Numbered from the stretch's first letter, positions 6,817-37,780 are shown. The stretch: 64,000 nucleotides of DNA from Clostridiales bacterium (GCA_040767605.1 JAXGOI010000001.1:1124607-1188606); one strand, 5' to 3'. The notes: generated by a model not told the origin, from the sequence alone. Numbers and translations are program-made.

Positions 6817-7017
6817 ATGCCTTATAAAGTCTGCCCGTCCTGTAATCAAACATCATATTCCGCCGGGGAAAGAGGTATTTGGTATTGCCCTTATTGCGGC
6901 GCGGATATGACATTTTGCAATAGCTGCATCCGCCCCAATAAAGCTGAAAATGCCAACCCCCTTCATGGTAATCCCCCGAATTATTTGCGGATAATCCAAG
7001 AGCCCCATAAGGATTAA
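6817..7017 (+). CDS. small zinc-ribbon protein
   Basis: CPSC...CPYC...CNSC cysteine pairs; start moved to MPYKV with GGAAAGGAAAAG SD; followed by a 10 bp GC-rich inverted repeat at 7031-7068. Confidence 0.45.
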   Translation: MPYKVCPSCNQTSYSAGERGIWYCPYCGADMTFCNSCIRPNKAENANPLHGNPPNYLRIIQEPHKD

Positions 7018-7164
7018 AATGATCCCTTTGTGCCCCGGGCGGCTTTGACTCCCCCAAAGACCGCCCGGGGCGCCTCTCTTAATTAAAAATTTTTCTATTT
7101 CAGGCAAAAGCAAAAGGCTGAGGGCATAGAATAGAAAAATCAGGGTTAAGGGGGCTTAAGCATT

Positions 7165-7554
7165 ATGGGGTTTTTTATCGCGGTTTTTTTGATTTTAGGC
7201 GCTTGGGCTGTATATTTTATATATAAAAGGCTGCCCCCTGTAAGGGAGCTGCCTGTTTTGTATGTAATTGTGGCAAAGGATACCCAAAATACGGAATGGC
7301 TGATTCGCTATATTTTCCGCCAAACAAAAAATTGGCGCTTGAAAATAGTTTGCCCCACCAAAGGGGAAGAAAGGGCTATTTTAGAAAGGCTTAACAGCCA
7401 GTATGGTTTTGAACTTTTAGATATTGCCCCGGCCGGCATGGAATTTAAATTAGAAATAAATAAAAAAAGCAAGCCTAAAGAATTAAAGAAAGAGCTGGGG
7501 CTTTTAAACGCAAAAATAAAAAGAAAGGGAAACCCTCTCCCGCGGAGAATATAA
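7165..7554 (+). CDS. hypothetical membrane-anchored protein
   Basis: single N-terminal TM helix, lysine-rich tail; no recognisable motif. Confidence 0.45.
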   Translation: MGFFIAVFLILGAWAVYFIYKRLPPVRELPVLYVIVAKDTQNTEWLIRYIFRQTKNWRLKIVCPTKGEERAILERLNSQYGFELLDIAPAGMEFKLEINKKSKPKELKKELGLLNAKIKRKGNPLPRRI

Positions 7555-9279: not shown

Positions 9280-9999
9280 ATGATTAATCAAAGAGAACAA
9301 GTCCTACGCAGTCAATATGAGGATGCCCTTGCCCAAATTGACAGCGTAATGGCTTCTAAAATTACCCTCAATGATGAGGGGGCTATTGCCGGAATAAATA
9401 TTCTTGCCACTGCGGATAGGCTTTCTGAGGATATACTTGAGGATGCGCTTCATGTTTTTCAAACAAAATTCGGCCTGGAAGCGGAGCCTCAATATATTAG
9501 TATTACCCAGGATGATTTAAGCAAGCAATGGGATGCTTATATCGGCAGCAATAAAATTATCCCGGTGGAGCCTCCCCTCAATGGGGCGCCTGCTGCTAAA
9601 CCCTTATTTCCCAGGTTCCGTTTATTATGTGTAAATACCGTTATAACCGGTCTGGAAATGGAGGTTTCGGTTCAAATAGGCTTTATGGGAGAAGTTTTTG
9701 AGGGTACCGTAAGAGGGCCAAAGACTTCCTCCGGAAGGCTGTTTATGGTAGCCGCCGCCACTATGCAGGCTGTCAGCAAGTTTTTAGGGGATAAAGCGGC
9801 TTTAATTGCAGAAGAAGTAGTAAAAACTAAAATGGCCCAGAGAGATTCTATTTTGGCCAGTGTAACCATGATTACCGAAAACGAAGAGGAAACCCTTTTA
9901 GGCTCGGTATTCGTTAAAGAAGACGAAAACGAGGCCGTAAGCAGAGCAGCTTTAGACGCTATTAACCGCAGAATTATGATGCTTGCCGGTAAGGACTGA
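9280..9999 (+). CDS. hypothetical protein (unrecognised family)
   Basis: good SD (GCAGGAGG), 239 aa, acidic; no motif recognised by eye. Confidence 0.55.
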   Translation: MINQREQVLRSQYEDALAQIDSVMASKITLNDEGAIAGINILATADRLSEDILEDALHVFQTKFGLEAEPQYISITQDDLSKQWDAYIGSNKIIPVEPPLNGAPAAKPLFPRFRLLCVNTVITGLEMEVSVQIGFMGEVFEGTVRGPKTSSGRLFMVAAATMQAVSKFLGDKAALIAEEVVKTKMAQRDSILASVTMITENEEETLLGSVFVKEDENEAVSRAALDAINRRIMMLAGKD

Positions 10000-14924: not shown

Positions 14925-15006
14925 GGCTTAAAGGCCTTTTAAGGCTAAAATTGTTTTTAATTAAAACCGCCAAATAAGGGCGGAGAATAAAAATAAAGAG
15001 GTGTAT

Positions 15007-15816
15007 GGAATGTCTCAAAAAACTCAAGAAAAGGCATTGGAAATCCGTAGGCAAATTATAAAAATGCTTACCGCTGCCGGTTCCGGGCATCCAGGAGGCT
15101 CTCTTTCTGCCGCGGATATTATGGCGGTTTTATATTTTCAGGAGCTTAAGCTGGACCCTGAAAACCCCCACTGGAAAGAGAGGGACCGCTTTATACTTTC
15201 CAAAGGCCATGCCGCACCAGCCCTTTATGCCGCTTTGGCTTTAAAAGGTTATTGCGGCTTAGAAGAGCTGGCAAATCTGCGCCGTTTAGGCAGCCGCCTT
15301 CAGGGGCATCCGGATATGCGTAAATTCCCGGGGATAGAAATTTCCACCGGCTCTTTGGGCCAGGGGCTTTCCGCCGCCTGCGGTATGGCATTAGCCTCCC
15401 GCCTGGATAAGCTTAATAATACAGTTTTTGTTCTTATGGGGGACGGCGAGGTTCAAGAGGGGCAGGTTTGGGAGGCCGCCATGTTTGCCGCCCATTATAA
15501 GCTGGATAATCTTATTGCCTTTATTGACCATAACGGTTTGCAAATAGACGGCAATATTTGCGATGTTTTATCCCCCGAGCCCCTTCCTGAAAAATGGCTT
15601 AGCTTTAACTGGCATGTTCAGGTAATAGACGGCCATGACCATAATGAAATTACCCGGGCCATTGCAAATGCCCGCAGTGAAAAGGGCCGCCCCTCCATGA
15701 TAATTGCCAATACCGTTAAGGGTAAAGGGGTTAGCTTTATGGAGAACCAGGCCGGCTGGCATGGGAATGCCCCTAAAGAAGAACAATGCAGCCAGGCTCT
15801 GGCGGAATTGGTTTAA
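15007..15816 (+). CDS. transketolase, N-terminal (TPP-binding) subunit
   Basis: [32 protein letters not shown] motifs; split two-subunit transketolase. Confidence 0.9.
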
Positions 15817-20188: not shown

Positions 20189-21328
20189 ATGCAAAAAACC
20201 TTTAGCTTATTATCGCTTTTATTAATTATTTTGCTTATTCTTTTGCCCGGCTGCGTAAATCAGCAGTTGGGGGAGACTTTATCCGGCCCGGGCATAAATG
20301 CCCGGGAGGCGGCGATTGCCATAGATAATCTGATGAGCGATCTTTTAGGGGAAAATAAAGATAATTACGCCACTTATTTTACCCCGGAGGAATATGAAGA
20401 AATTTACGGTAAATATACCGGCAGCTTTGGGGGGGTAGGGGTATATTTAATCGCCCAGGAAGATGAGGGCTACCCCCTGATTGTTAATACCATGAAGGGC
20501 CGCCCCGCGGATTTATCCGGGGTGCAGCCCGGGGATATTCTTTTATCCATTGATGATGAAAGTACAGCCTTTTTAGATATTGATTTAGTTGCCCGCATGG
20601 TTAAGGGTGAGATCGGCACCATGGTTAAGCTGGAAGTTTACCGTCCAAATGACGGCACTACTCAGTTTATTTCCGTTTGCAGAGGCTTAATAGAAACAGA
20701 AAGCGTAAACGGCAAGATGCTTGCCGGTGAGAGTGGTATTTCATATATTGCGGTTTATGATTTTAATAATCATACCCCGGAGGAATTTGTTAAAATATTT
20801 AATCAGTTAAATAAGAATGACGCCGTAAAAGCCCTGGTTTTGGATTTAAGGAATAATGGGGGGGGCAGTGTGGAAGCCGCGGTAGATTTAGCCTCCTTTT
20901 TTGTGCCTAAGGGAGAAGTTATTTTTTGGCAGAAAAAGGCGGAGGGCATGGCAAATTACCGCTCCAGCTCAAATCAAACTTTAAAGCTGCCTTTAGTTTG
21001 CCTGCAAAACGGTTCCAGCGCCAGTGCTTCGGAAATGGTAATCGGGGCGATAAAAGACCACGGCTTAGGTGTAACCCTGGGGGAGACCAGCTTCGGCAAG
21101 GGTATAACCCAATTGATATACCCCTTAAAAAGCGGGGCGGCCCTGCGCTATACCGAAAGCAAGTATTTTACCCCCAATAAGTATGATCTTCATAATAAGG
21201 GCATAGAACCCCAAATTAAAATTGAAAACAAGGCGGATTTTTTCCCCGATGTAAGTAAGCCGGACCCTAAAAATGATGCCCAGCTGCAAAAAGCTGTGGA
21301 AATATTAATGGAGCAGCTTGATTCTTAA
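20189..21328 (+). CDS. ctpA: S41 family C-terminal processing peptidase
   Basis: PDZ segment (GVQPGDILLSIDD), S41 motifs (LDLRNNGGG, GSSASASEMV), terminator at 21354-21385. Confidence 0.85.
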   Translation: MQKTFSLLSLLLIILLILLPGCVNQQLGETLSGPGINAREAAIAIDNLMSDLLGENKDNYATYFTPEEYEEIYGKYTGSFGGVGVYLIAQEDEGYPLIVNTMKGRPADLSGVQPGDILLSIDDESTAFLDIDLVARMVKGEIGTMVKLEVYRPNDGTTQFISVCRGLIETESVNGKMLAGESGISYIAVYDFNNHTPEEFVKIFNQLNKNDAVKALVLDLRNNGGGSVEAAVDLASFFVPKGEVIFWQKKAEGMANYRSSSNQTLKLPLVCLQNGSSASASEMVIGAIKDHGLGVTLGETSFGKGITQLIYPLKSGAALRYTESKYFTPNKYDLHNKGIEPQIKIENKADFFPDVSKPDPKNDAQLQKAVEILMEQLDS

Positions 21329-21353
21329 AATATCTTTAAAATTAATTTTAGAT

Positions 21354-21385
21354 AAAAAAGAGCCGAAGTACGGCTCTTTTTTATT
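21354..21385 (+). terminator. Rho-independent terminator after ctpA
   Basis: AGAGCCGaagtaCGGCTCT followed by TTTTTTATT. Confidence 0.7.
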
Positions 21386-21677
21386 CCGGTTTTTTGGCGG
21401 GCAAAAAAACCCAATAATAGGCAAGAAGAATTTGCCGTGATTTAATCAGCAGAAAAATAAAAAATAAATCAATCAAAATAAGCCCGTTTTAACCCCCGGC
21501 GGTGCCAATTGGCCTGGCGGCTGAAAGAGAAATTTTACAGATTATTCTAATAGGAATAGTTCTTTGCCGATATGGACAAAAACCGGGTTTGGTGCTAAAA
21601 TAGTTAGGTATGAATATATTAGTCTTTACATATTAAAATGTATTATTTAGGCTAAATAACCATAAAGGAGCAGAACC

Positions 21678-23345
21678 ATGCTTATAACTGGCGGAGAGAT
21701 AGTAGTTAATGCTTTAAAGAAAGAGGGAGTGGATATAGTCTTCGGCTATCCGGGGGGCGCCGCATTACCCCTTTACGATGCCCTGTATAATTCCGGCATC
21801 AGCCATATTCTTACCCGGCATGAGCAGGGGGCTGTTCACGCTGCAGATGGCTATGCCCGCGCCAGCGGCAAAGTTGGGGTCTGTTTTTCCACCTCCGGGC
21901 CGGGGGCCACAAATTTAATAACCGGAATAGCCACCGCGTATATGGATTCTATCCCTCTTGTTTGTATTACCTGCCAGGTTGCTTCCAGCCTTTTAGGTAA
22001 GGATTCCTTTCAGGAGGCGGATGTTACCGGGATTACAACCCCCATTACAAAGCATAACTTTATGGTAAATGATAAGGATTCCCTATGCCAAATTATGGCG
22101 GAGGCTTTTTATATTGCCAAAAGCGGCCGCCCGGGGCCTGTTGTAATAGATATTCCCAAGGATATTTTTACCCAGCAAGCCTGGTATGATTACCCGGGCA
22201 AGGTAGCCCTAAAAGGGTATCGCCCTCAAATTACCGGCAATGCCGGGGATATTACCCTGGTTGCTAATGCTCTGGCCGCGGCTAAGCGCCCGCTGCTGTT
22301 TATTGGGGGCGGGGCTGTTACCGCCGGTATTGCTGAGGATGTGGAAAAATTGCTGGATAAAACAGGTATGCCCTTTATCAGCAGCCTTATGGGCTTGGCT
22401 GTTATGCCTAAAAACCATAAGCAGAATTTAGGAATGGTGGGTATGCACGGAACTTATGCCGCCAATATGGCGGTAACAAATTGCGATTTGCTTATTGCCT
22501 TAGGGGCCCGCTTTGATGACAGGGTTACGGGTATTGTAAGCAAATTTGCCCCCCTGGCAAAAATAGCTCATTTTGATGTTGACCCCTCTGAAATAAATAA
22601 AATAGTTAAAACCCGTTATAGGGTTTTGGGAGATTTGCGCTGGTCCGCCCCGCTTTTGGCTGAAATGGCCCAGGAGGCGAATAATGAAAACTGGCTTAAT
22701 CAAACCAAAGCCTGGATGAGCCAGCGCCCCCTAAAATATAAGGATGATTCCAAACTTCTTAAACCTCAGGCTGTTATCGAGGCCGTTAATTCCTATTTGG
22801 CGGATGATGCCATTATTGTAACGGATGTAGGGCAGCATCAGATGTGGGCCGCCCACTATTGTGATTTTAAAAGCCCCCGGGGTTTTCTTACCTCAGGCGG
22901 CTTAGGCACTATGGGCTATGGTTTGCCTGCCGCCATTGGGGCCGCTTTAAATAACCCCAAGCGGGAGGTTTGGTTCTTTACCGGGGACGGCAGCCTAATG
23001 ATGAATTGCCAGGAGATTATTACGGCTGTGGAATTGGAATTGCCCATAAAAGTTATTATTTTAAATAATCAGGGCTTAGGTATGGTACGCCAATGGCAAA
23101 GGCTTTTCTTTAATAATCGTTACAGCAACTCCAAGCATCAAAAACCGGCGGATTTTGTCCGGCTGGCGGAAGCCTTTGATGCCACAGGCATAAATGTAAC
23201 AGAAAAAGAAGATTTAAATCAGGCCCTCTCTAAGGCTAAAGCTTCTGCCACCCCCATATTCCTTAATGTTCGGGTAGAAGACGATGAGGATGTTCTGCCC
23301 ATGGTGGCGCCTAATGCGGCTTTAGACCAAATGATAGAAGAATAA
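21678..23345 (+). CDS. ilvB: acetolactate synthase large subunit
   Basis: TPP enzyme motifs (GYPGGA, GPGATN, GDGS...N), 555 aa. Confidence 0.9.
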   Translation: MLITGGEIVVNALKKEGVDIVFGYPGGAALPLYDALYNSGISHILTRHEQGAVHAADGYARASGKVGVCFSTSGPGATNLITGIATAYMDSIPLVCITCQVASSLLGKDSFQEADVTGITTPITKHNFMVNDKDSLCQIMAEAFYIAKSGRPGPVVIDIPKDIFTQQAWYDYPGKVALKGYRPQITGNAGDITLVANALAAAKRPLLFIGGGAVTAGIAEDVEKLLDKTGMPFISSLMGLAVMPKNHKQNLGMVGMHGTYAANMAVTNCDLLIALGARFDDRVTGIVSKFAPLAKIAHFDVDPSEINKIVKTRYRVLGDLRWSAPLLAEMAQEANNENWLNQTKAWMSQRPLKYKDDSKLLKPQAVIEAVNSYLADDAIIVTDVGQHQMWAAHYCDFKSPRGFLTSGGLGTMGYGLPAAIGAALNNPKREVWFFTGDGSLMMNCQEIITAVELELPIKVIILNNQGLGMVRQWQRLFFNNRYSNSKHQKPADFVRLAEAFDATGINVTEKEDLNQALSKAKASATPIFLNVRVEDDEDVLPMVAPNAALDQMIEE

Positions 23346-23395
23346 AGCCCAAATAAAATTATTCGCGGCTTAGGAGAGTAAAAAAGGAGGCTATT

Positions 23396-23902
23396 ATGAA
23401 GCAGAGTCTTTCCGTATTAGTAGAAAACCGCCCCGGGGTTTTAACCCATGTTTCGGCCCTTATTTCCCGCCGGGGCTATAATATTGAAACCATTGCGGCA
23501 TCTTCAACAGAGGTGCCGGACGTAACGAGAATTTCCCTGGTTATGGATGTCAGCTCTCATCAGGAGCTGGAGCAGATTCTTGCCCAGCTGGAGAAGTTAA
23601 TTCATGTAATTAAGGTTCTGGATTTATCTACAACCGATAAAATAGGCAGAGAAATGGCTTTAATAAAAGTCCGGGCTCAGGCGGAGGCCAGGGGGGATAT
23701 TACAAATGTTTGTGATATTTTCCGGGCTAAAATTGTAGATGTTCACCCCGAGACGGTGGTAATTGAGGTTACCGGGGAAAGCACTAAAATTGATGCCTTT
23801 TGTGACCTGATGGGAAAATACGGCATTGTGGAAATTATCCGTACCGGAGAAATTTTCCTTACCCGCTATTCCCATTCTGCCTTGGAAGGTATTTGTGATT
23901 AG
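23396..23902 (+). CDS. ilvN: acetolactate synthase small (regulatory) subunit
   Basis: ACT domain N-terminus LSVLVENRPGVLTHVSALISRRGYNIETI; 168 aa. Confidence 0.9.
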   Translation: MKQSLSVLVENRPGVLTHVSALISRRGYNIETIAASSTEVPDVTRISLVMDVSSHQELEQILAQLEKLIHVIKVLDLSTTDKIGREMALIKVRAQAEARGDITNVCDIFRAKIVDVHPETVVIEVTGESTKIDAFCDLMGKYGIVEIIRTGEIFLTRYSHSALEGICD

Positions 23903-23941
23903 TTTTAATTAAGGGTAATGTTACAGGCGGAGGCGCTAGGG

Positions 23942-24928
23942 ATGAAAATAGGTATACCAAAAGCATTGCTTTATTATTATTATTACCCCCTTTGGAAGGC
24001 TTTTTTTGAGGAATTAGGCCATGAGGTTATTGTATCCTCCACCACAAATAAGTTTTCTATAAACGAAGGGTCTAAAGTCAGCGTTCCCGAAATTTGCGTC
24101 CCCATCAAGGTTTATAACGGCCATGTGCTGGAGCTTTTAGATAAAGGGGTAGATTATATTTTTGCCCCCCGAATGGTAACGGTAGAGAAGGATAAAACTT
24201 TTTGCCCTAAATTTTTAGGCTTACCCGATATGCTTCGCTATACCTTCCCCAAAGAGGTAGGGCGCTTTATTTGCCCGAATATTTCCGGGGAGAGCGAGTG
24301 GCAGGCTAAGGCGGAGGATTTAAAAAAGGCGAATTTATTAAACCGTTACAGCCAGGTGGAATTAAGCAGAGCCTGGCAAAAAGGGGTGGAAATTTGGCGG
24401 CATTTCCGAAATATTTGCCGCCGGGGTTATAGAATAGACGAGGCCTTAAAGCTTTATTTAAGCCCTAAGCTCCCCCCGCTTAAGGAATGGACGGGTAAAA
24501 TTAATATCGGTCTTGTAGGCTATGTATATGATATTTATGATGAATTTGTAGGTATGGAAACCCCGAAGCGCCTCAGCGATATGGGGGCCAATGTATTTAC
24601 CTTTGAAATGCTTAAAAATAAAGATATTGATAAGCAAATAGCCCCTATGAAGAAGTCCCTGTTTTGGACATTCTCCAATAAGGCTTTCGGCGTCGGGCTG
24701 CATTTTTATTCGGACCCTAAAATTGACGGCATTATTCATTTAACGGCCTTTGGCTGCGGGCCGGATTCCCTCTCCGGCAAAATGATGGAGCTGGATTCTT
24801 CTATTTATGCCAAGCCTTTTTTAACCGTAAGGGTGGATGAGCAAAGCGGAGAAAATCATCTTCAAACAAGAATAGAAGCATTTGTGGATATGCTTCTGCA
24901 TAAAAAATATAAAGATTCTATTGCTTAA
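23942..24928 (+). CDS. acyl-CoA dehydratase activase-related protein (DUF2229-like, N-terminal-type module)
   Basis: characteristic N-terminus MKIGIPKALLYYYYYPLWKAFFEELG; 15-40 nt downstream of ilvN. Confidence 0.65.
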   Translation: MKIGIPKALLYYYYYPLWKAFFEELGHEVIVSSTTNKFSINEGSKVSVPEICVPIKVYNGHVLELLDKGVDYIFAPRMVTVEKDKTFCPKFLGLPDMLRYTFPKEVGRFICPNISGESEWQAKAEDLKKANLLNRYSQVELSRAWQKGVEIWRHFRNICRRGYRIDEALKLYLSPKLPPLKEWTGKINIGLVGYVYDIYDEFVGMETPKRLSDMGANVFTFEMLKNKDIDKQIAPMKKSLFWTFSNKAFGVGLHFYSDPKIDGIIHLTAFGCGPDSLSGKMMELDSSIYAKPFLTVRVDEQSGENHLQTRIEAFVDMLLHKKYKDSIA

Positions 24929-25012
24929 TTTGCCTGAATAAGCCTTAAATGGCCTTGCCTAAGGCTTATTCAGCGAATATATTTTACCCTAAACCCGGAT
25001 TTGAGGTGTATT

Positions 25013-26125
25013 ATGAAATTATCTTTCCCTTATATGGGCGAAGCAACAGTAGCCTATAAAAAACTTGCCACCATGCTGGGGCATGAGCTTATACCCCCCC
25101 CTAAGCCCACAAAAAAAACAATCGATTTGGGGGTAAAGTACGCCCCGGAATTTGCCTGTTTCCCTTTAAAGGTTCTTATGGGCACCTATTTGGAAGAAAT
25201 AGAAATGGGAGCGGAAACTATTATTTCCTCCGGCGGCCACGGCCCCTGCCGGGCCGGGTATTATGGGGAGGTACATAAAAAGATTTTGCAATCCCTGGGT
25301 TATGATAATATACGGGTTATAATTTTAGACAGTATTTGGGATGATACCTTGCGCTTTATCAGCGATGCCAAGCATATTAAAGGCAAAAATTCTATTTTTA
25401 GGCTGGGGCAGGTGCTGCGCCTGGTTTATAATTCCATTAAGCTTTTAGACAACACCGAGCAAAGGATTACCTCCTTAAGGGCCTATGAAAAACGCCCGAA
25501 TACGGTAAACAGAGCCTGGGAAGAGGCCCTAGACCTGATAGACAGGGTAGAATCCATGGCTCAGCTTTCTAAAACCGCCCAAGATATAGATGAAATAATC
25601 AAAGGGGTTGAAATTAACCCCGTAGCCGAGGAAGACCGCATCAGAATAGGGATTGTCGGCGAAATTTATGTGGTAATGGAAAGCTCGGTAAATATGGAAA
25701 TGGAGAAAAAGCTGGGAGAGCTTGGCTGCGAGGTTCGCCGTTCCCAGTACCTTTCAGACTGGATAGATTTTAACGCCATTCCCCATTTCATCAGCCGCCC
25801 CCATGAGCTTGAGGTGGAAAGATTGGGCAGAGAATATTTCCCTATCCCTATTGGCGGCCATGCCCAGGGCAATATGGGCTGGATTAAGCAATATCATCAA
25901 TGGGGCTATGACGGGGTTGTGCATTTGCTCCCCTTCGGCTGCCTTCCGGAATTAATGTCTCAAAGTATAATTCCGGCTATTTCCAAAGAATTAAATATCC
26001 CGATTATTTCCTTTGCCTTGGATGAACAAAGCGGCCTTGCCAATAATCTTACCAGGCTGGAAGCCTTTGTGGATTTGGTAAAGGCCCAAAAGCCCCAGAT
26101 TTCTCAAATTAAGAGGGCGGTGTAA
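25013..26125 (+). CDS. acyl-CoA dehydratase activase-related protein (DUF2229/HGD-D-like second module)
   Basis: FPYMG...YAPEFACFPLK...SGGHGPCRAGYYGE motifs typical of the second conserved module of YjiM-like proteins. Confidence 0.6.
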   Translation: MKLSFPYMGEATVAYKKLATMLGHELIPPPKPTKKTIDLGVKYAPEFACFPLKVLMGTYLEEIEMGAETIISSGGHGPCRAGYYGEVHKKILQSLGYDNIRVIILDSIWDDTLRFISDAKHIKGKNSIFRLGQVLRLVYNSIKLLDNTEQRITSLRAYEKRPNTVNRAWEEALDLIDRVESMAQLSKTAQDIDEIIKGVEINPVAEEDRIRIGIVGEIYVVMESSVNMEMEKKLGELGCEVRRSQYLSDWIDFNAIPHFISRPHELEVERLGREYFPIPIGGHAQGNMGWIKQYHQWGYDGVVHLLPFGCLPELMSQSIIPAISKELNIPIISFALDEQSGLANNLTRLEAFVDLVKAQKPQISQIKRAV

Positions 26126-26129
26126 ATAA

Positions 26130-27098
26130 GTGAAGAAAAAGACATTTATCGGCATAGATATCGGCTCTGTAAGCACAAATTTAGTGGTGTTGGATGAAAA
26201 CTTTGAGGTATTATTTTCCCGCTATGTTCGTACCAGCGGCCAGCCTGTGGAATCTGTTAAGGGCGCTTTAAGAGAATTAACTCAAGACCATATGGATATG
26301 GAAATCTGCGGTGTCGGCACCACAGGCAGCGGCCGTCAATTAGTCGGCCTTATGGTAGGGGCCGATGTGGTTAAAAATGAAATTACAGCCCATGCCACGG
26401 CAACAACCCATTTCTTCCCCGATGTAAATACAATTTTTGAAATCGGCGGGCAGGATTCTAAAATAATTATTATTAAAGACGGCATAGTGGTAGATTTTGC
26501 CATGAACAGCGTTTGCGCCGCCGGCACCGGCTCCTTTTTAGATCATCAGGCGGAAAGGCTGCAAATTCCCATTGAAAAGTTTGGCAAGCTTGCCCTTACC
26601 GCCCAAAGAGATGTAAGAATAGCCGGCCGCTGCACCGTTTTTGCGGAATCTGATATGATTGCCAAGCAGCAATACGGCTTTTCCAAGGCCGAAATTATTA
26701 AGGGCCTTTGCGGGGCCCTGGTAAGGAATTATATAACTAATTTAGGGCGAGGTAAAAATTTGCGGCCGCCCTTTGTTTTTCAGGGCGGGGTAGCGGCTAA
26801 TGAGGGGATTGTAGCCGCCTTTGAAAAGGAAATGGGCCATAAGGTTCTGGTTCCGGAGCATTATGGCATTATGGGGGCAATCGGGGTGGCTATTTTAGCC
26901 GCGGAGAATTATTATCAAACAAATAAGCCCAGCAGCTTCAGGGGCCTCGATATGGCGGATTTAGATTTTGTCTCCTCCAGCTTTGAATGCGAGGGCTGCT
27001 CCAATTGTTGTGAGGTTATACAGGTTTCTTTGGATAATAAAGTTGTGGCCTCTCTGCGGGATCGCTGCGGCAAATGGAGCGAGGCTTCAAACGGCTAG
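26130..27098 (+). CDS. BadF/BadG/BcrA/BcrD-type ATPase (CoA-substrate-specific enzyme activase), with extra C-terminal Cys cluster
   Basis: GIDIGSVSTNLVVLD actin-fold ATPase motif; C-terminal CEGCSNCC...C; GTG start. Confidence 0.8.
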   Translation: MKKKTFIGIDIGSVSTNLVVLDENFEVLFSRYVRTSGQPVESVKGALRELTQDHMDMEICGVGTTGSGRQLVGLMVGADVVKNEITAHATATTHFFPDVNTIFEIGGQDSKIIIIKDGIVVDFAMNSVCAAGTGSFLDHQAERLQIPIEKFGKLALTAQRDVRIAGRCTVFAESDMIAKQQYGFSKAEIIKGLCGALVRNYITNLGRGKNLRPPFVFQGGVAANEGIVAAFEKEMGHKVLVPEHYGIMGAIGVAILAAENYYQTNKPSSFRGLDMADLDFVSSSFECEGCSNCCEVIQVSLDNKVVASLRDRCGKWSEASNG

Positions 27099-27130
27099 TT
27101 TTTGCGCCCTTTGGGTAAAATAAAAACAAT

Positions 27131-27160
27131 AAAAAAAGCCCGGCATGCCCGGGCTTTTCT
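27131..27160. terminator. bidirectional terminator hairpin between convergent genes
   Basis: AAAAAAAGCCCGG-CATGC-CCGGGCTTTTCTATTTTG. Confidence 0.65.
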
Positions 27161-27199
27161 ATTTTGTGCTTGCTTAATTCTTTTAACTTAGCTTTGCTT

Positions 27200-27892
27200 T
27201 TAGCTGAAGAAACCCCCGGAGCCTATTTGGGGAACCCGGATTTGGGTTGCCTTTTCAACTCTGGTGCCGGCGCAGTCATTGCAATCCGCATCAGGGCGGG
27301 CTTTTTCCTCACAGGGCAGGGTAGTGGCAGGTAATGTACAGAGGCAATGCTCCTGAACAACGGTTTGGCGCAGGCAAATTCTGGCGCCGACTACAACACT
27401 GACTACTACATAATCCCGCTCCACATGGGTAATAATCGCCGAAAGTACTAAAATACGGCTATTTTGGGTATCCAGCACGGAATAGGGGGTGCATTTTAAG
27501 CCAACAGTATGGAGGGAGGTAAAAGTTTGGCTTATATAAGGGGGGTCACATTCGCATAGAGAAGCGCAGGGGTCTAAAAACTTAATGGGGTAACGGGTCA
27601 GTACGGTGGAAAGGCAGGTTCCGTTTAATTCTTCCCGGTTTACCTCAGTACTTGTAACATCGCCGTCAATTTGAATATCAAGCTGTCTGCCCAGCTTGAG
27701 GTTGGAAAGATCGCAGCATTGTGAAATGGGGACTATGATATCCTTTTGTACCTCCTCAAATTTGCAGCAGCTGTCTATAACCGTATTTATCAGCGCCTTA
27801 ATTAAAGAAGGGGGAACATCCATCCGGCACCCATTACCCACCCTGGAGTTTTGGGCTGCGGGGCTTACTTTGTTGTTGGGATAGCATTTCAT
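27200..27892 (-). CDS. cysteine-rich hypothetical protein (about 20 Cys, many CC/CxC pairs)
   Basis: start moved to MKCYPNN with SD GAGAGGTG; no recognised family. Confidence 0.5.
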   Translation of the reverse strand: MKCYPNNKVSPAAQNSRVGNGCRMDVPPSLIKALINTVIDSCCKFEEVQKDIIVPISQCCDLSNLKLGRQLDIQIDGDVTSTEVNREELNGTCLSTVLTRYPIKFLDPCASLCECDPPYISQTFTSLHTVGLKCTPYSVLDTQNSRILVLSAIITHVERDYVVVSVVVGARICLRQTVVQEHCLCTLPATTLPCEEKARPDADCNDCAGTRVEKATQIRVPQIGSGGFFS

Positions 27893-28102
27893 GGTAAGCA
27901 ACACCTCTCAAAATAGTTTTTCTATACTCAGTTTATGCCGCAAGGCCTTTGCTTGTTAATATTGTCCGGCAAGAAGGGGCTAAAATATAAAAAAAATAAA
28001 GTAACCTTAGGGCTATGTCTTTTATATACTAAATGTAATGGCAGGGTTTTTAATAAGCCGCTGCCATAAGCCGCTTACTAAAAGTAAGCGTTAATATAAA
28101 AA

Positions 28103-28239: not shown

Positions 28240-28989
28240 TTATGGTTTAGCACCGGCCGGGAGCTCCTTAAGGGTTTCGGCAACTTTGCCGATGGCCGAG
28301 GCTAAAAAGGGCTTATAATAGCTTTTTAAAGAAAGGCTTATTTCTAAAATCAAATCCGCCATGGCCGGAATATCCGGAGTGCCGCCTTTACGCTTAAGGG
28401 AGGCAGCCTGTTTTTGAGCTAAAGTTTCAGGGCTTACTTTGTGTAAGGCAAAAATATCGCCGGCGCGGCTAAAAACGGCAATAAAATTTTGCGAAGGTAT
28501 TTTTGTATAGGCCCGGAGTATATTACTAACCTCAACAGAGGCTGTTTTATCTTCCAAGGCGGCAAGTATTTCTAAATTTAAACCGGGGTTTTCTTCCAAA
28601 ACCAAAAGCTCCAGAGCCATTTCAATAAAATTGTGGGCCTTCCACCAGATTAAATTATCGGCAAGGCCTGTGGCCTTTTTTACTTTTGGCATCCAGGGTA
28701 CCCCTTGCTGAAAGCACCAGCCCTTTTCCCCTCCGGGCCAGTATTCATCGGCAAAAAAATCCATGCCGGGGGGCTTATTCCCATGGCAGATTATCCCTTT
28801 GGCCAAAGGCAGCCCTATAGGGGCGTTTTCCAAACACCAGGCGTAGAAATCCCCCCCCATTTCATGGGCGGCATCCCGGTTCATGCCGGCATTTATGGCC
28901 AAATCCGGAAAAATCCCCCCAAAAACCATAAAAGGGTGAATCTGGGAATGCAATAATTTATTGGCATAATGATGAACAATAGGGAACAT
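28240..28989 (-). CDS. hypothetical protein, possible metal-dependent hydrolase (His/Asp-rich N-terminal half)
   Basis: 249 aa; MFPIVHHYANKLLH...FPDLAINAG; family not recognised. Confidence 0.45.
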   Translation of the reverse strand: MFPIVHHYANKLLHSQIHPFMVFGGIFPDLAINAGMNRDAAHEMGGDFYAWCLENAPIGLPLAKGIICHGNKPPGMDFFADEYWPGGEKGWCFQQGVPWMPKVKKATGLADNLIWWKAHNFIEMALELLVLEENPGLNLEILAALEDKTASVEVSNILRAYTKIPSQNFIAVFSRAGDIFALHKVSPETLAQKQAASLKRKGGTPDIPAMADLILEISLSLKSYYKPFLASAIGKVAETLKELPAGAKP

Positions 28990-30305: not shown

Positions 30306-31598
30306 ATGAAAAGAGCGGTTGTTTTAGGCGGGGGCGGCTCCCGCGGGTCATATCAAATAGGTGTTTGGCAGGGAATAAGAGAATTAGAGCTGGAATATCA
30401 AATTGTTACGGGTACATCCGTCGGCGCCTTAAACGGCGCCTTAATGGTTCAGGGGGATTATGAGCGGGCCAAAGAAATTTGGAGCAGAATCAGCCTTAAG
30501 GATGTGCTGGATATTGATTTGACGGATTTGGATTTAAAAAAGAAAGACCACCGCAAACAGCTGTTTAATATTTTTTTTAAAGAAAAGGCCGAAAAATGGG
30601 GGGCGGATTTAAACGCTCTTTCTCATACTATGGATAATTATATCTCAGAGGAGGCCTTTTTTGCCTCCGGGGTGGATTTTGCCCTTATGACTGTAAAATA
30701 TCCCTCCTTTAAGCCGGTTCCTGTTTTTAAAGGGGATATACCCCCCGGTATGCTAAAAGATTATTTGCTGGCCTCCGCGGCTCTTTTCCCCGCTTTTCAG
30801 GCTCAAAAGGTAGGCAAGGATATTTATATTGACGGCGGCTATTATGATAATATGCCGGTTAACCTGGCCTTGGATATGGGGGCCCAAGAGGTTTTAGCGG
30901 TGGATCTCAGGGCCTTTGGTAAAATTCAAAGAGTTAAGAGGACTAAAGCGTTTATAAAATATATCCGACCCTATAATCCTTTGGGCACTCTGCTAAGCTT
31001 TAATGAAACCCTGGCAAAAAGGAATATGCGCCTGGGTTATCTGGATACCCTTAAGGCCCTGGGGCATTTAGAGGGTATCGGTTTCAGTTTTTACCTAGGG
31101 GAAAGTAAAAAAAATCCTCAGGAATTGGGGGAGGCCTTTAAAGAGGGCTTAAGGCTTTTAGATGATTCAAAAAAAACCCCTCTTTCCCGCCTTGCCGTAG
31201 CCAGAGTTTGCAAGCTTTTAGGGCTTAATAAGAATAAAGGTGATTATTTAGAGCTCCTGCCCTGGGGCGCTCAATATGCCGGGGAGATTTTTAATCTTGA
31301 AGATACTAAAATATATTTTTATCAGGAATATAATTACCGGCTTTTAGATTCTTATAAAGAATTTATAAAAAAATGGGAACAGCTTATGCCTGGGCCGGGA
31401 ATCTTTAATTCCGGAGAAATTAAGGACAAGCTGGCTCTTTTAGATAAAAGAGCTGTCAGCGCCTTTTTAGTTTGGTTAATTAATCAGGTGGATGAGGGTA
31501 AAATCCCCGCCTGGGATTTACAGGCCCTGGCCTTTGCCTTCGGCAAAGAAACGGCGGCGGCTTTATATATAAGGTGCCTGCTTTCTCTGGAGGTTTAA
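30306..31598 (+). CDS. patatin-like phospholipase family protein
   Basis: GGGSRGSYQIGV oxyanion motif and GTSVGA lipase serine motif. Confidence 0.85.
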   Translation: MKRAVVLGGGGSRGSYQIGVWQGIRELELEYQIVTGTSVGALNGALMVQGDYERAKEIWSRISLKDVLDIDLTDLDLKKKDHRKQLFNIFFKEKAEKWGADLNALSHTMDNYISEEAFFASGVDFALMTVKYPSFKPVPVFKGDIPPGMLKDYLLASAALFPAFQAQKVGKDIYIDGGYYDNMPVNLALDMGAQEVLAVDLRAFGKIQRVKRTKAFIKYIRPYNPLGTLLSFNETLAKRNMRLGYLDTLKALGHLEGIGFSFYLGESKKNPQELGEAFKEGLRLLDDSKKTPLSRLAVARVCKLLGLNKNKGDYLELLPWGAQYAGEIFNLEDTKIYFYQEYNYRLLDSYKEFIKKWEQLMPGPGIFNSGEIKDKLALLDKRAVSAFLVWLINQVDEGKIPAWDLQALAFAFGKETAAALYIRCLLSLEV

Positions 31599-35354: not shown

Positions 35355-35427
35355 AAAAAGCGCCTAAAGGCGTCCTACCATAGGGATTGGTAATCCCTGA
35401 AAAACTCGGCATAGTCGTGTGATACGG

Positions 35428-36117
35428 CTATGCCGTTTTTTCGTGCGTTTTCGGAATCTCGACTGCGCCGATGCAGTTGTAGATAATCTGGATGCGCTGG
35501 GTACGGACGCCATCGACCTTTTCTGCCTTGTAGACGATGATTTTCTCAATGAACTCGCGGATTATCTCTCCGTCCAATTCCGTGAAATCCGTGTAGCCCT
35601 TGACCCGTGTGAGAAAGCGGTCGATGTTGAGCGCCCTCTCTTTTGTGGCGTCGAGCATGGCTTTGAGCACCGTGGCTCTCTCCACGAGGGCTTTCTGCTC
35701 AGCCTCGTAATCGGCGGACATCCGGCTGAAACGCTCCTCCGAGATTTTCTCCATCACATGGTCTTCGTAAAGACGCTGCATGATTTTGTCCAGCGCCGCT
35801 ATCCGCACCTGCCCTTGCTCGTATTCCTTCTGCGCAAGCCGCATATCCGCAGCGTGTTTTTTCTCGGAATCCCTTTGCACCAGCTCGACAAACTCGCGCT
35901 CGTGTTCGCTGGCAAAGGCAATGACCCGCTTCAAATCGTCCATCACCAGCTCCTCGATGACCACATTGCGTATCTGGTGGGAACTGCACAAGCCCTTCTT
36001 TTTACGGTATGTAGCGCAGACGAAATATTCCTTGTCGTGCGTCCAGCCGTTGGCTCTGACCTGATACAGCTTCGCGCCGCAGTCGGCGCAGTACATCATG
36101 CCGGAAAGAGCGCCCAT
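35428..36117 (-). pseudogene. large serine recombinase (TnpX/TndX-like), C-terminal fragment only: zinc beta-ribbon plus coiled-coil; catalytic resolvase domain missing
   Basis: LSGMMYCADCGAKLY...FVCATYRKKKGLCSSHQIRN zinc ribbon; same frame upstream hits a stop at 36196-36198 and no S/R catalytic motifs are encoded upstream. Confidence 0.75.
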
Positions 36118-36272
36118 TTGGCTAATGCCGCCGTGTAAGCTGCTGCGGCATTCTGTGGGAGTGCACAGAGGTGGTGTGCCGGGTCGTTTGCCATGTCACG
36201 CAGTTCCGGCGCAACAGTGGCGTTCTTCATGCTTTTCCAGAAAGCGTCGGTGATTTTTTCGTAAGTTAACAT
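36096..36272 (-). CDS. small ORF (58 aa) overlapping the recombinase fragment start
   Basis: AGGAGG SD then ATG at 36272; MLTYEKITDAFWKSMKN...; could be a frameshifted relic. Confidence 0.3.
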   Translation of the reverse strand: MLTYEKITDAFWKSMKNATVAPELRDMANDPAHHLCALPQNAAAAYTAALAKWALFPA

Positions 36273-36289
36273 TGTAATATCCTCCTAAT

Positions 36290-36577
36290 TTAATAACAGT
36301 TTTTGCAGGTGTAGACGGCCAGCGTGTGCCGGTCGAGGTGCGGCGCTATGGAGTCCATGACCGCACCGCAGTAGGGACAATGGATGGTGTACCTGAGATA
36401 ATCCGTCATGCTGTGGGGCTGCCTTGCATGGAGCCGGTATCGATTCGGGATGAATTCTTCAAGGTATAGGTCGTGATGGTCGTTGACGCAGCCATAATCG
36501 GTGTTGCCGAACATGGGCGTTTTGTCGGTGCCGTCCATAGTGGTGTCCACAAGCGGGTGGTACTTGATGTCCGTCAT
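36290..36577 (-). CDS. small zinc-ribbon protein (95 aa), island cargo
   Basis: AGGAGG SD; C-terminal CPYC...CKNC; start overlaps upstream stop (ATGA). Confidence 0.5.
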   Translation of the reverse strand: MTDIKYHPLVDTTMDGTDKTPMFGNTDYGCVNDHHDLYLEEFIPNRYRLHARQPHSMTDYLRYTIHCPYCGAVMDSIAPHLDRHTLAVYTCKNCY

Positions 36578-36861
36578 GCGCTTTTCCTCCTGAATTTGTC
36601 ATAACGGCGTTTAAGCAGAATGGCGCGAATACGGCTGATGTAGCCTCTGTCGATGCAGTCCTGCAGCATCTGGTCGATTGTGCCGTACCAGCAGCTCCCG
36701 CCGCGACAGCGCATATTGAGATATTTGTCCTTGCTCATGTCTCTGGGAACGAGCAGGACGGCGGCGTCCTCGTGCGACTGCGGCACGACAGCCAGCAGGT
36801 GGAAAGTGGCAAGGTTCATATCCATGCGCAGGTAGCGCTCCAGTCGTCTGTTCAGCTTCAT
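36574..36861 (-). CDS. small basic hypothetical protein (95 aa), island cargo
   Basis: start 4 nt after upstream stop; Cys/Arg-rich (MRCRGGSCWYGTIDQMLQDCIDRGY). Confidence 0.5.
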   Translation of the reverse strand: MKLNRRLERYLRMDMNLATFHLLAVVPQSHEDAAVLLVPRDMSKDKYLNMRCRGGSCWYGTIDQMLQDCIDRGYISRIRAILLKRRYDKFRRKSA

Positions 36862-36865
36862 GCGC

Positions 36866-37141
36866 TCACGCCTCCACGTCGGCAAGGGGATTGCCGGAGA
36901 GGTCAAAGAAGCGTCCCTTGCAGTACGCCATCGCCTCGTCATAGCTGCCGAACACAAGGCAGGAGCAGCCGTATTCGACCTTCCATATCGGGAAGTCCGG
37001 GTCGTTGTTCTGGGAGACAGCCACAGGCTGGCCCTTGCGATTCTGTAGCAGGAAGTGGCAGTCGTAGTGGCCGCGAGAGAACATTCCTCTGTCGTTGGCT
37101 GTGAAGCGCGGCTTCGCGCCGTAGGTTATCTTGCGTTTCAT
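36866..37141 (-). CDS. small hypothetical protein (91 aa), first gene of island operon
   Basis: SD GGAGGAAAACAAC then ATG at 37141; MKRKITYGAKPRF... Confidence 0.5.
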   Translation of the reverse strand: MKRKITYGAKPRFTANDRGMFSRGHYDCHFLLQNRKGQPVAVSQNNDPDFPIWKVEYGCSCLVFGSYDEAMAYCKGRFFDLSGNPLADVEA

Positions 37142-37168
37142 GTTGTTTTCCTCCATTTGTTTGATTTT

Positions 37169-37180
37169 GGGTATATACCC
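37169..37180. promoter_or_regulatory. perfect 12 bp palindrome GGGTATATACCC just upstream of island operon SD
   Basis: read directly; overlaps probable -10 region; candidate operator. Confidence 0.35.
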
Positions 37181-37780
37181 CGTTTGAATTCGCGTTTTTG
37201 TGTACGAAGCCCCACGCCGCTGTCCGAGATGAATAGCTGTGGAGATTCGACCTCCCCCTGATAAGTACCCCAAAAATTGGACAGCCATAGTTGTCCTTAT
37301 CCGCGTTTGCAAGAGCAACGAAGCAAAGGCTGTTTCATTCTCTAAGGCGCGTAACGAGCAGAATGGCACGCTCAGTTGCGGAAGCAAGAATCTTCACGAT
37401 ATTCTTGTTTTGTTCATCCCGGACTACCAGCCGAAAAAGCGGTACAAGGTTACGGGCGAATTTGATGCCGAAAACCGTGTGATGTACTACGATATGACCA
37501 CAGCGGAGGTGTCGGAGTTCCGCGCTGTCAAGGAGTAAAGTGCCGCCGTATCGGTGGTGCTATGCCGTCGGTGCGGCTTCCTTAGGGATTTTTCTGCACG
37601 CAAAAAAGCAGCCATGCAGGAGCGTAAATGCTCTTACATGGCTACTTTCTTGTTTGCGCCGCTTGAAGCTGTCACTCAAGTTTTTTTGTTAAATCCCTGT
37701 GTGAACGCTCCAAAAAGGCGCTTTTTTATTGGCGTAAATTTGGCTTTTACCCCTTAAAGTGTTACCGGCGAAGGGAATTC

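Follow-up and report, generated by a model that had tools for sequence, protein, structure and literature searches.

We analysed a stretch of 64,000 nucleotides from a Clostridiales bacterium (the window), in which the acetolactate synthase genes ilvB and ilvN are followed by three genes, called here A, B and ACT. An earlier note on this DNA had described ilvBN followed by two DUF2229 genes and an activase gene, and this arrangement and its positions were confirmed. The five genes lie head to tail and are flanked by two intrinsic terminators. The features of the region are as follows.

21351..21385, + strand: intrinsic terminator, 15-bp stem then T-run; closes the upstream ftsEX / M23 peptidase / S41 peptidase unit
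21573..21601, + strand: putative sigma-70-type promoter for the five genes (17 nt between TGGACA and TAAAAT, the latter with an extended TG)
21678..23345, + strand: ilvB, biosynthetic acetolactate synthase large subunit, 555 aa (TIGR00118 and three TPP-enzyme Pfam domains)
23396..23902, + strand: ilvN, acetolactate synthase small regulatory subunit, 168 aa (NF008864, TIGR00119, ACT_AHAS_ss and ALS_ss_C domains)
23903..23941, + strand: ilvN-A junction, 39 nt, free of terminators; ribosome-binding site GGAGG at 23929-23933
23942..24928, + strand: subunit A, 328 aa, DUF2229 catalytic subunit, Red1 counterpart of PlsA/Ger-type proteins
24934..24973, + strand: A-B spacer hairpin, perfect 14-bp stem, then a weak U-rich tail
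25013..26125, + strand: subunit B, 370 aa, paralogue of A, Red2 counterpart (PlsR-like)
26130..27098, + strand: ACT, an activase of 322 aa from the HgdC / HadI / BcrAD family (ATP-driven electron transfer), bearing a Cys4 tail at its C-terminus
26988..27068, + strand: Cys4 mini-domain of ACT, C287-x2-C290-x3-C294-x18-C313
27134..27158, + strand: intrinsic terminator, G+C-rich bidirectional hairpin, stem of 10 to 12 bp with 6 G-C pairs, T-runs on both strands

The HMM matches identified both subunits of IlvBN, at the equivalog level, as a biosynthetic acetolactate synthase: IlvB scored 768 bits against TIGR00118 (equivalog cut-off of 538), and IlvN scored 175 bits against TIGR00119 (cut-off of 57) and 195 bits against NF008864 (cut-off of 119). 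The terminator at 21351..21385 is the 5' boundary of the five-gene transcription unit and the terminator at 27134..27158 closes it, the next gene being convergent on the latter; no terminator-like site of above-chance strength was found between the two. Among the promoter-like sites of the region, the one at 21573..21601 scored highest (10 of 12 positions matched, a consensus match only), and the total count of sigma-70-like sites across the region was not above chance. Another sigma-70-like site (9 of 12 matches), located inside ilvN at 23763-23790, may be an internal promoter.

The distance between ilvN and A is 15 nt when the first in-frame ATG (23918) is taken as the start of A and 39 nt with the database-called start (ATG 23942), in agreement with the spacing given previously. 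Folding of the 39-nt junction was no better than that of shuffled sequence (RNA fold z of -0.56), and the junctions of the close relatives L082 to L085 (-4 to 43 nt, with a 4-nt overlap of the ilvN and A reading frames in L084) are also unstructured and free of terminators. Co-transcription with ilvBN, as proposed in the earlier note, thus appears likely here, and the five genes most likely form one transcript from the ilvBN promoter in this genome. A and B are separated by 84 nt (to the ATG at 25013), and B and ACT by 4 nt. The hairpin of the A-B spacer (MFE of -29.8 kcal/mol, z of -3.47, single copy in the window) is possibly a partial terminator or an element of mRNA processing or stability, and it might break the transcript; the length of this spacer in relatives ranges from 30 to 363 nt.

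Subunits A, B and ACT

The domain assignments of the earlier note were correct: PF09989 (DUF2229) matched A with 169.5 bits and B with 46.3 bits (gathering threshold of 29.4), and PF01869 matched ACT with 169.6 bits over the whole model. The scores of A and B against PF06050 (HGD-D), 24.4 and 24.3 bits, respectively, were both below the gathering threshold of 28.4. A and B have the fold of BCR/HAD catalytic subunits (HadBC / BzdNO). At the sequence level, the similarity of A to HadC is confined to the last ~60 residues, the top PDB sequence-profile match of A is DCCP (E of 8e-4, C-terminal region), and no BCR/HAD chain was matched by B. Three cysteines are invariant in each subunit (C52, C88 and C272 of A; C49, C79 and C310 of B), C272 of A being aligned with a cysteine of DCCP and of HadC, and we infer that each subunit would hold an Fe-S cluster via its three cysteines. 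No HgdAB-type partner had been recognised near the activase; A and B, with their BCR/HAD fold and three invariant cysteines each, are that partner.

ACT scored 189 bits against TIGR00241 (cut-off of 125), and its PDB matches were MbdQ (4e-39), HgdC (1e-35), HadI (1e-34) and DCCP-R (1e-27). Residues C129 and C168 are invariant in 76/76 orthologues; from their alignment position, they appear equivalent to Cys127 and Cys166 of HgdC (1HUX), which bridge a [4Fe-4S] cluster in the activase dimer. The four cysteines of the mini-domain, C287, C290, C294 and C313, are likewise invariant in 76/76 orthologues. The C-terminal cysteine cluster claimed previously is therefore present, but not as CxxCxxCC: the conserved form is C-x2-C-x3-C-x18-C, and C293, the second cysteine of the 'CC', is not conserved among the 76 orthologues. 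The predicted ligand of this mini-domain is a metal or an Fe-S cluster. The same motif was found at residues 608-633 of a fused protein of 1412 aa, P0123, and was absent from E. coli YjiL. Judged from the motif, the mini-domain is homologous to the Act2-Red1 linker of fused PlsA/Ger-like proteins.

Comparison with known systems

E. faecalis, among others, encodes PlsA in a single gene, and Ger is a glycerol ester reductase of T. maritima and D. alkenivorans. [quoted passage not shown] In P0123, two BcrAD_BadFG domains are followed by DUF2229 and then HGD-D, which is the architecture given for Ger and PlsA in PMC13159169.

Comparison of the three subunits with P0123 showed that A matched Red1 with 68.6 bits (24% identity) and Red2 with about 19 bits, that B matched Red2 with 52.4 bits (20% identity) and Red1 with 26.6 bits, and that the best alignment of ACT was with Act2 (31% identity), extending into the common CxxCxxxC motif. 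With P0123 as the identity reference, A, B and ACT are collinear with Red1, with Red2 and with Act2 and its Cys4 linker, respectively, at 20-31% identity to the fused protein. A-B-ACT shares with PlsA/Ger its building blocks (an activase of the BcrAD_BadFG type and two 'reduction' modules of the DUF2229 type with C-termini resembling HGD-D), the Cys4 motif after the activase domain, anaerobic hosts and, in some cases, a TetR-family gene upstream. Its modules are nevertheless encoded by three genes, arranged Red1, Red2, Act, whereas the fused order is Act1-Act2-Red1(-Red2). In the 'BBD' core, conserved in all alkyl-ether producers, a tandem of two activase domains precedes the reduction domain in one fused protein (PMC13159169), whereas A-B-ACT has a single activase domain, encoded by its own gene after A and B.

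In Pseudobacteroides, the A-B-ACT cluster adjoins a fused PlsA/Ger-like gene; split and fused forms are thus neighbours in one genome (L035). Because of this coexistence and of the 20-31% identity to the fused form, A-B-ACT would be a distinct paralogue of the latter.

A pair of paralogous Fe-S subunits forming a heterodimer, served by a homodimeric ATP-dependent activator, is also found in HgdAB/HgdC, HadBC/HadI and FldBC/FldI. Unlike the 2-hydroxyacyl-CoA dehydratases, however, A and B match PF06050 only below threshold, the HadC similarity is C-terminal and seen in A only, and ACT has an extra Cys4 tail compared with their activators. The usual companions of the Hgd, Had and Fld systems are a CoA-transferase, a CoA-ligase and a 2-hydroxyacid dehydrogenase; none of these was among the recurrent families within four genes on each side of 80 A-B-ACT loci, nor among ten window genes near the cluster (Pfam scan). 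The class I benzoyl-CoA reductases (BzdNOPQ, MbdONQP, BcrABCD) include the best sequence match of ACT, MbdQ, but they have a heterodimer of two different activase-type subunits, whereas ACT is a single gene and A-B-ACT has no aromatic-degradation genes nearby.

The likeness to E. coli YjiL/YjiM put forward in the earlier note was not borne out. YjiL is 32% identical to ACT and YjiM belongs to the same superfamily, but the alignment of YjiM to A and B covers only 60 to 64 C-terminal residues (E of 0.002-0.004), a single YjiM gene stands in place of an A/B pair in E. coli, and YjiL has no Cys4 tail. DCCP is a homodimer with six cysteines for its double-cubane cluster. The DCCP/DCCP-R system of C. 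hydrogenoformans (PDB 6ENO, 7YYL) resembles A-B-ACT through the top PDB match of A and the match of ACT to DCCP-R, but the sequence match to DCCP is C-terminal only, A and B are a heteromeric pair with three invariant cysteines each, and DCCP-R (243 aa) is without a Cys4 tail.

Distribution and linkage to ilvBN

Complete A-B-ACT was found in 77/80 genome loci, the remaining 3/80 being truncated at contig ends; these loci span Bacillota, Halanaerobiales, Thermotogota and Calditrichales. In 57 of 72 loci, the gene before A was divergent or lay 150 nt or more away, and A-B-ACT is a conserved unit that usually forms its own operon. Its neighbourhood is highly variable, no recurrent flanking gene family being present in more than 14 loci. 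A scan of species-representative genomes gave a relative of A at no fewer than 570 places among the 600 matches listed, with anaerobes as the hosts of all relatives among these matches, and the A family comprises 781 clusters at 50% identity (E <= 1e-30). The split three-gene form, presented before as unusual, is common in anaerobes. Fusions of A and B of about 700-770 aa were among the top matches.

Of the ten closest genomes, nine have the ilvBN genes upstream of A (the window, L082, L083, L084, L085/L006, L003, L004, L005 and L007), and the adjacency is kept there despite changing outer flanks. The ilvBN genes are not adjacent in L002 or in any more distant locus, and about 70 other genomes with A-B-ACT have no ilv gene within 10 kb, which argues against the earlier hint at branched-chain or 2-hydroxyacid metabolism. 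The earlier note had taken a terminator or independent promoter between ilvN and the cluster as counting against its reading. No terminator lies there in the window; in L003, L005 and L007, ilvN is followed by a terminator (hairpin and U-run; z of -3.65, -4.03 and -3.53, respectively), and these three loci have the common motif GCAGGAGTT-N12-GTCGAA upstream of A. A similar sigma-H-like motif was found upstream of A in 10/76 loci versus 1/76 on the opposite strand, and A would have its own sigma-H-like promoter in L003, L005 and L007. In L005 and L007, ilvBN is grouped with panB-panE.

Since ilvBN lies upstream of A only in the closest genomes, has its own terminator in three of them, and A appears to have its own promoter there, the linkage is most likely a lineage-specific operon fusion and not the sign of a shared pathway. 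The fusion would have occurred through loss of an ancestral terminator and promoter spacer. The retained adjacency could reflect selection for co-regulation, and its persistence next to changing outer flanks makes a functional tie between ilvBN and A-B-ACT possible. Limited to one small lineage, the ilvBN link probably tells little about the function of A-B-ACT.

Function of the A-B-ACT system

We consider it fairly probable that A, B and ACT are a complete three-subunit radical enzyme of the BCR/HAD (benzoyl-CoA reductase / 2-hydroxyacyl-CoA dehydratase) superfamily, joined to ilvBN by a lineage-specific fusion. It would belong to the DUF2229 branch, in which PlsA/PlsR and Ger, the ether-lipid enzymes that it most resembles, are the characterised members. 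The gene identities, the folds, the invariant cysteines, the collinearity with the fused form and the conservation of synteny are results of this analysis, whereas cluster binding, ATP-driven electron transfer, co-transcription and the substrate class are inferred. By homology, the ACT homodimer would carry a bridging [4Fe-4S] cluster via C129 and C168 and, by hydrolysing ATP, would deliver a low-potential electron to the A/B clusters; the A/B heterodimer would then turn an ester or thioester carbonyl into a ketyl radical. The Cys4 tail, as the equivalent of the Act2-Red1 linker, probably docks ACT on A/B or bears a further metal site.

The ketyl-radical chemistry of the superfamily removes a hydroxyl adjacent to a carbonyl, as in HgdAB and HadBC. 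Such an elimination would suit a scheme in which the five genes serve one pathway, with A-B-ACT using a branched-chain or 2-hydroxy/2-oxo-acid intermediate derived from, or competing with, acetolactate; its reaction might be the radical dehydration of a 2-hydroxyacyl thioester or of an alpha-hydroxy carbonyl compound. The tight terminator-free spacing in the window and four close relatives, the frame overlap in L084 and the adjacency kept by all but one of the ten closest genomes, though their outer flanks differ, are in line with it. We nevertheless judge this scheme quite improbable, given the genomes with A-B-ACT and no nearby ilv gene, the terminator after ilvN and separate promoter motif before A in three of the adjacency genomes, the association of ilvBN with panB-panE, the lack of the three companion gene types in the scanned neighbourhoods and the sub-threshold PF06050 scores of A and B. 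Moreover, the substrates of characterised DUF2229 enzymes are lipid esters and not acyl-CoA (PMC13159169). An ATP-dependent reductase of small non-lipid, non-CoA substrates, similar to DCCP and with an uninformative gene context, would be consistent with the variable neighbourhood of the cluster, the presence of DCCP among the best sequence and fold matches of A and B, and the match of ACT to DCCP-R; it is hardly likely, because the A/B pair has three invariant cysteines in each subunit, as in HadBC and BzdNO and unlike the DCCP homodimer, and because the full-length relation is to DUF2229 proteins, whereas the DCCP match covers only the last ~60 residues.

Alternatively, A-B-ACT could itself be a split orthologue of PlsA/PlsR (or Ger), converting the sn-1 acyl ester of phospholipids to a vinyl or alkyl ether redundantly with the fused form. 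Its domain content and collinearity are those expected, its hosts are anaerobic throughout among the matches listed, and other states of fission or fusion exist, as shown by CPE1194/1195 of C. perfringens (PMC12838417) and by the A-B fusions. A TetR-family gene is directly upstream of the cluster in 7 loci, as reported for E. faecalis plsA (PMC9702350), and the cluster adjoins the fused gene in Pseudobacteroides. This identity is unlikely, however, as verified PlsA proteins have 41-55% mutual identity (PMC12838417) versus 20-31% between A-B-ACT and the fused protein, the fused family is highly conserved (75% identity between Pseudobacteroides and Lachnospiraceae), A-B-ACT has one activase domain and not two, and the two forms side by side in L035 point to different jobs. 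Extra PlsA homologues without an activation domain, whose role is described as unclear, have been reported in Bacillota (2026 paper, PMC13274423).

For a three-subunit radical enzyme of the DUF2229 branch, as we favour, the substrate may, by analogy with PlsA and Ger, be a membrane glycerolipid, attacked at an acyl ester; to this tentative proposal we give clearly less than an even chance. As the A-B-ACT family appears to be a separate paralogue, it would act at a different step or on a different substrate than PlsA/Ger.

Composition and limits of the five-gene block

The ORF map and HMM scans showed that ilvB, ilvN, two DUF2229 genes (A and B) and an activase gene (ACT) are five co-directional genes. 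An earlier note had described ilvBN followed by a split activase/DUF2229 cluster; the ORF map and the Pfam and NCBIfam scans confirmed this arrangement and its domain assignments.

Features of the block in the window
21351-21385, intrinsic terminator, one outer limit of the block
21573-21601, top promoter-like site of the block
21678-23345, ilvB (TIGR00118, 768 bits against a cut-off of 538)
23396-23902, ilvN
23942-24928, A, full DUF2229 domain (PF09989, 169.5 bits); start ATG 23942 in public gene calls, behind GGAGG
25013-26125, B, weaker but still significant DUF2229 match (46.3 bits against a threshold of 29.4); public-database start ATG 25013
26130-27098, ACT, BcrAD_BadFG activase (PF01869, 169.6 bits; TIGR00241, 189 bits)
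27134-27158, intrinsic terminator, other outer limit of the block

Both A and B fell under the Pfam threshold for HGD-D (PF06050; 24 bits versus 28.4). With starts at ATG 23942 and ATG 25013, the gaps are 39 nt between ilvN and A, 84 nt between A and B and 4 nt between B and ACT. The ilvN-A junction folded no better than shuffled sequence (z -0.56) and holds no terminator, and an Rfam search of 21300-27300 returned no known RNA family, no T-box and no riboswitch. Given the outer terminators, the promoter-like site, the unstructured junction and this Rfam result, read-through from ilvBN into A-B-ACT is the simplest reading, and co-transcription in this genome, as the note had proposed, is plausible. 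Rfam also gave no match upstream of A in seven relatives. No CodY box was found near ilvB, and the six matches across the window are fewer than expected by chance. Neither ilvC nor ilvD was found elsewhere in the window among the 20 ORFs scanned.

The A-B spacer of the window contains a perfect 14-bp hairpin (24934-24973, z -3.5); an origin as a repeat element was rejected, no second copy being present in the window. This spacer is about 20 nt in most genomes and is unusually variable in the sub-lineage of the window, where L082 carries a G+C-rich, highly structured insert of 363 nt (2791-3152). The insert of L002 (10551-10882) has 333 nt and a long inverted array, in which four copies of TTAGGAG form one side and about twelve CTCCTCA-type heptamers the other.

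A, B and ACT as a probable radical-enzyme system

A and B are paralogous to each other (hhalign probability 99.7%), and each has exactly three invariant cysteines (C52, C88 and C272 in A; C49, C79 and C310 in B), of which C272 of A aligned with one cysteine of DCCP and of HadC. Sequence comparison of A with the PDB was marginal, only the last ~60 residues resembling solved proteins (DCCP, HadC), and B matched no related chain, so that structure prediction was needed for both. ACT matched the solved activators MbdQ, HgdC, HadI and DCCP-R at 1e-27 to 4e-39, and its C129 and C168, invariant in 76 of 76 orthologues, are what we take to be the counterparts of the two HgdC ligands of the dimer-bridging cluster. 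The paralogy, the invariant cysteines and the activator matches thus describe a complete activase-plus-heterodimer system of the radical-enzyme type found in the benzoyl-CoA reductase/2-hydroxyacyl-CoA dehydratase (BCR/HAD) superfamily. The statement that no HgdAB-type partner lies nearby was a misreading, since A and B are the catalytic partner rather than accessories of the activase. By homology, the ACT dimer would spend ATP to supply the Fe-S clusters of A and B with a low-potential electron, and these would then form a ketyl radical from a carbonyl.

The C-terminal tail of ACT carries four cysteines (C287-x2-C290-x3-C294-x18-C313) kept without exception across the 76 orthologues. The extra CxxCxxCC cluster reported earlier therefore exists, but one C of its CC pair is replaced in most genomes: C293, taken then as part of the motif, is usually N. 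P0123, the 1412-aa fused protein of locus L035, has this motif too, after its second activase domain (Act2; C608, C611, C615 ... C633); E. coli YjiL lacks it. The Cys4 element is therefore a hallmark of activases paired with DUF2229 proteins and is not peculiar to this ACT gene.

The fused giants, once described as being of unknown substrate, are now PlsA/PlsR and Ger (PMC9702350, PMC12838417, PMC13159169). Plasmalogens are made by PlsA/PlsR of C. perfringens and by the single-gene PlsA of E. faecalis, L. cremoris and B. longum (PMC9702350, PMC12838417), and Ger of T. maritima and D. alkenivorans, of architecture BBDHDDH, converts glycerol esters to alkyl ethers (PMC13159169). In Pseudobacteroides cellulosolvens (L035 10001-17579), P0123, which has the PlsA/Ger architecture, is encoded 212 nt 3' of A-B-ACT on the same strand, so that split and fused forms coexist side by side. 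Comparison with P0123 showed that ACT aligned best with Act2 (31% identity), that A was closer to Red1 (24% identity, 68.6 bits) than to Red2 (about 19 bits), and that B was closer to Red2 (20% identity, 52.4 bits) than to Red1 (26.6 bits). The A/B duplication therefore took place before split and fused forms diverged; the two are the same parts in different packaging. Fusions of A with B, of 690-770 aa, account for about 11 of the best 150 family representatives. The fused family itself is very conserved (75% identity between Pseudobacteroides and Lachnospiraceae); because of this, of the low identity to P0123 and of the coexistence in one genome, we treated A-B-ACT as a separate paralogous family and set aside its identification as PlsA/PlsR itself. 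The similarity of E. coli YjiM to A and B is confined to the last 60 residues.

Additional PlsA-like homologues of Bacillota, 'without activation domain', are described as being of unclear role (PMC13274423). The ~330-aa DUF2229 proteins of this kind are plausibly these homologues, and our loci suggest that the latter may come with an activase gene of their own.

Distribution of the module and its link to ilvBN

The scan covered one genome per species, and the synteny figures come from the best 80 of at least 600 places. A relative of A is encoded at 570 of the 600 places listed, and A, B and ACT are all present in the same order at 77 of the best 80 loci, the other three ending at contig edges. 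The hosts, all anaerobes, are Bacillota (Alkaliphilus, Natronincola, Lutispora, Tepidibacillus, Thermoanaerobacter, Roseburia and others), Halanaerobiales, Thermotogota and one Calditrichales genome. Either a divergently transcribed gene or a gap of 150 nt or more lies in front of A at 57 of 72 loci. The neighbourhood had no functional theme: flanking genes were mixed (ABC ATPase, MocR-type regulator, HD-domain protein, BioY, Fur-like, sigma factor, argG/argH, TetR and others), and no flanking family occurred in more than 14 of the best 80 loci. A-B-ACT is a split form, found widely, of an enzyme kind already known; its operon fusion with ilvBN is most likely specific to one lineage.

One locus has a second A'-B' pair (L021 17338-20523, minus strand), 33-34% identical to A/B, which lacks an adjacent activase gene and adjoins two chromate-transporter (ChrA) half-genes; a single activase may serve more than one catalytic pair.

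Among the best 80 loci, ilvB-ilvN was found 5' of A in the closest relatives only.

Identity of A to that of the window, and ilvN-A spacing
L082: 76%; gap of 43 nt
L083: 73%; gap of 20 nt; upstream ftsEX-M23-S41 context as in the window
L084: 66%; 4-nt overlap of ilvN and A
L085 (the same contig as L006): 65%; gap of 35 nt
L004: 57%; gap of about 40-60 nt
L003, L005, L007: 57-59%; gap of 190-450 nt

L002, whose A is 67% identical to that of the window, has no ilvBN at the cluster. A hairpin-plus-U-run terminator follows ilvN in L003 (z -3.65), L005 (z -4.03) and L007 (z -3.53); those of L003 and L005 were missed by a simple terminator scan, as A-tracts pair with the U-run, and were confirmed by folding. 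The same three loci share a motif upstream of A, GCAGGAGTT-N12-GTCGAA(T/G).

Sites of the shared motif
L003 9759-9785
L005 9814-9840
L007 about 9905-9931

This motif fits what we take to be the sigma-H consensus, RnAGGAwWW-N11-12-RnnGAAT. The pattern RnAGGwWW, 10-13 nt, RnnGAAT was present 5' of A in 10 of 76 loci, versus 1 of 76 on the opposite strand; such motifs also lie 117-231 nt 5' of A in L016, L021, L023, L032, L036, L037, L047 and L069, and hosts with a comparable motif include Alkaliphilus and Natronincola. Judged from the motif, this hints that A may be expressed in transition/stationary phase or early sporulation. A terminator and a putative independent promoter between ilvN and the cluster are present in L003, L005 and L007, while the strict pattern was not found in the window. 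There, a degenerate look-alike (GGAAGGTAT, 11-12 nt, TTTAATT) overlapping the end of ilvN was not called as a promoter because it is without the critical G of GAAT.

The most economical history of this linkage is that ilvBN and A-B-ACT would have been adjacent but independent units in the ancestor of a Peptococcaceae/Desulfitobacteriaceae-like group, a later collapse of the spacer in the sub-lineage of the window giving the five-gene operon. The general link to branched-chain metabolism hinted at in the note was not borne out across loci and, on present evidence, the fusion gives no indication of a new branch of branched-chain amino-acid metabolism; it is a local curiosity that could give a regulatory handle.

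In L005 (5358-9562) and L007 (5729-9833), ilvB-ilvN is preceded by panB-panE (ketopantoate hydroxymethyltransferase and ketopantoate reductase), which suggests a tie of this ilvBN copy to the supply of pantothenate precursors in these two relatives. In L084, ilvB (5798-7467) consists of four short ORFs, either as a pseudogene or through frameshift errors of a long-read assembly; the remaining genes (ilvN, A, B and ACT) are intact.

Candidate substrates and neighbouring genes

The best candidate for the substrate of A-B-ACT, though in itself less likely than not, is a glycerolipid ester. The sole characterised DUF2229 enzymes use lipid esters, every host is anaerobic, and in L035 the module adjoins the fused PlsA/Ger-like gene. 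Moreover, seven loci (L041, L042, L044, L048, L067, L069 and L072) have a co-directional TetR-family gene (TetR_N with an AefR-like C-terminal domain) directly 5' of A, and a TetR/AcrR gene is likewise reported directly upstream of plsA in E. faecalis (PMC9702350). However, identity to the fused form is low, and the fused form coexists with the split one. An ilv-related small acid or thioester seems to us quite improbable. A functional tie to ilvBN is kept alive by the sole observation that adjacency persisted while the outer flanks changed.

A 'yet-unknown enzyme' has been invoked for steps towards branched ether and membrane-spanning lipids beyond PlsA and Ger in Bacillota (PMC13274423). That A-B-ACT could be this enzyme, a third radical enzyme of anaerobes for ester/ether lipids that in this lineage came under the control of the ilvBN promoter, is unlikely; if true, lipid remodelling would be co-regulated, via that promoter, with the supply of branched-chain fatty-acid primers. 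A connection of the DUF2229 branch of BCR/HAD enzymes with bacterial ether lipids (plasmalogens, alkyl ethers and precursors of the brGDGT palaeoclimate markers) has been made only lately. The ~330-aa DUF2229 proteins of this kind are not orphan pieces but part of a conserved, self-sufficient three-gene module, with a dedicated single-domain activase bearing the Cys4 element of the fused enzymes. Widespread in anaerobic Bacillota, Halanaerobiales and Thermotogota, it offers a defined three-gene target for heterologous expression, and its value for ether-lipid biochemistry somewhat outweighs the ilvBN angle.

Several other features were observed in the window and its relatives.

27200-27904, minus strand, cysteine-rich gene converging on the cluster, no Pfam/NCBIfam match; its L006 equivalent is 29% identical (tblastn)
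28240-28989, minus strand, second convergent gene, no Pfam/NCBIfam match
30306-31598, patatin-like phospholipase gene, 3.2 kb 3' of the cluster, also in L082
35419-37540, region of 52% G+C against about 44% elsewhere, with overlapping ORFs on both strands
35428-36117, minus strand, 229-aa ORF resembling the C-terminal part (zinc ribbon and coiled coil) of a large serine recombinase
51503-51651, ribosomal protein L10 leader (RF00557, 57.5 bits), 5' of the L10 - L7/L12 genes
55904-56923, YegS/DAGK-type lipid kinase gene

L082 (237 and 250 aa) and L085 (224 aa) have genes of similar size, also with no Pfam match, at the corresponding convergent position. The patatin-like and YegS/DAGK-type genes are lipid-related and conserved no further than the closest relatives, and the region at 35419-37540 is probably what is left of an integrated mobile element. 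Formimonas warabiya (L003) has a tandem pair of c-di-GMP-I riboswitch aptamers, each scoring 75 bits, just 3' of the cluster (14940-15181, minus strand) and 5' of a gene for an HD-domain protein.
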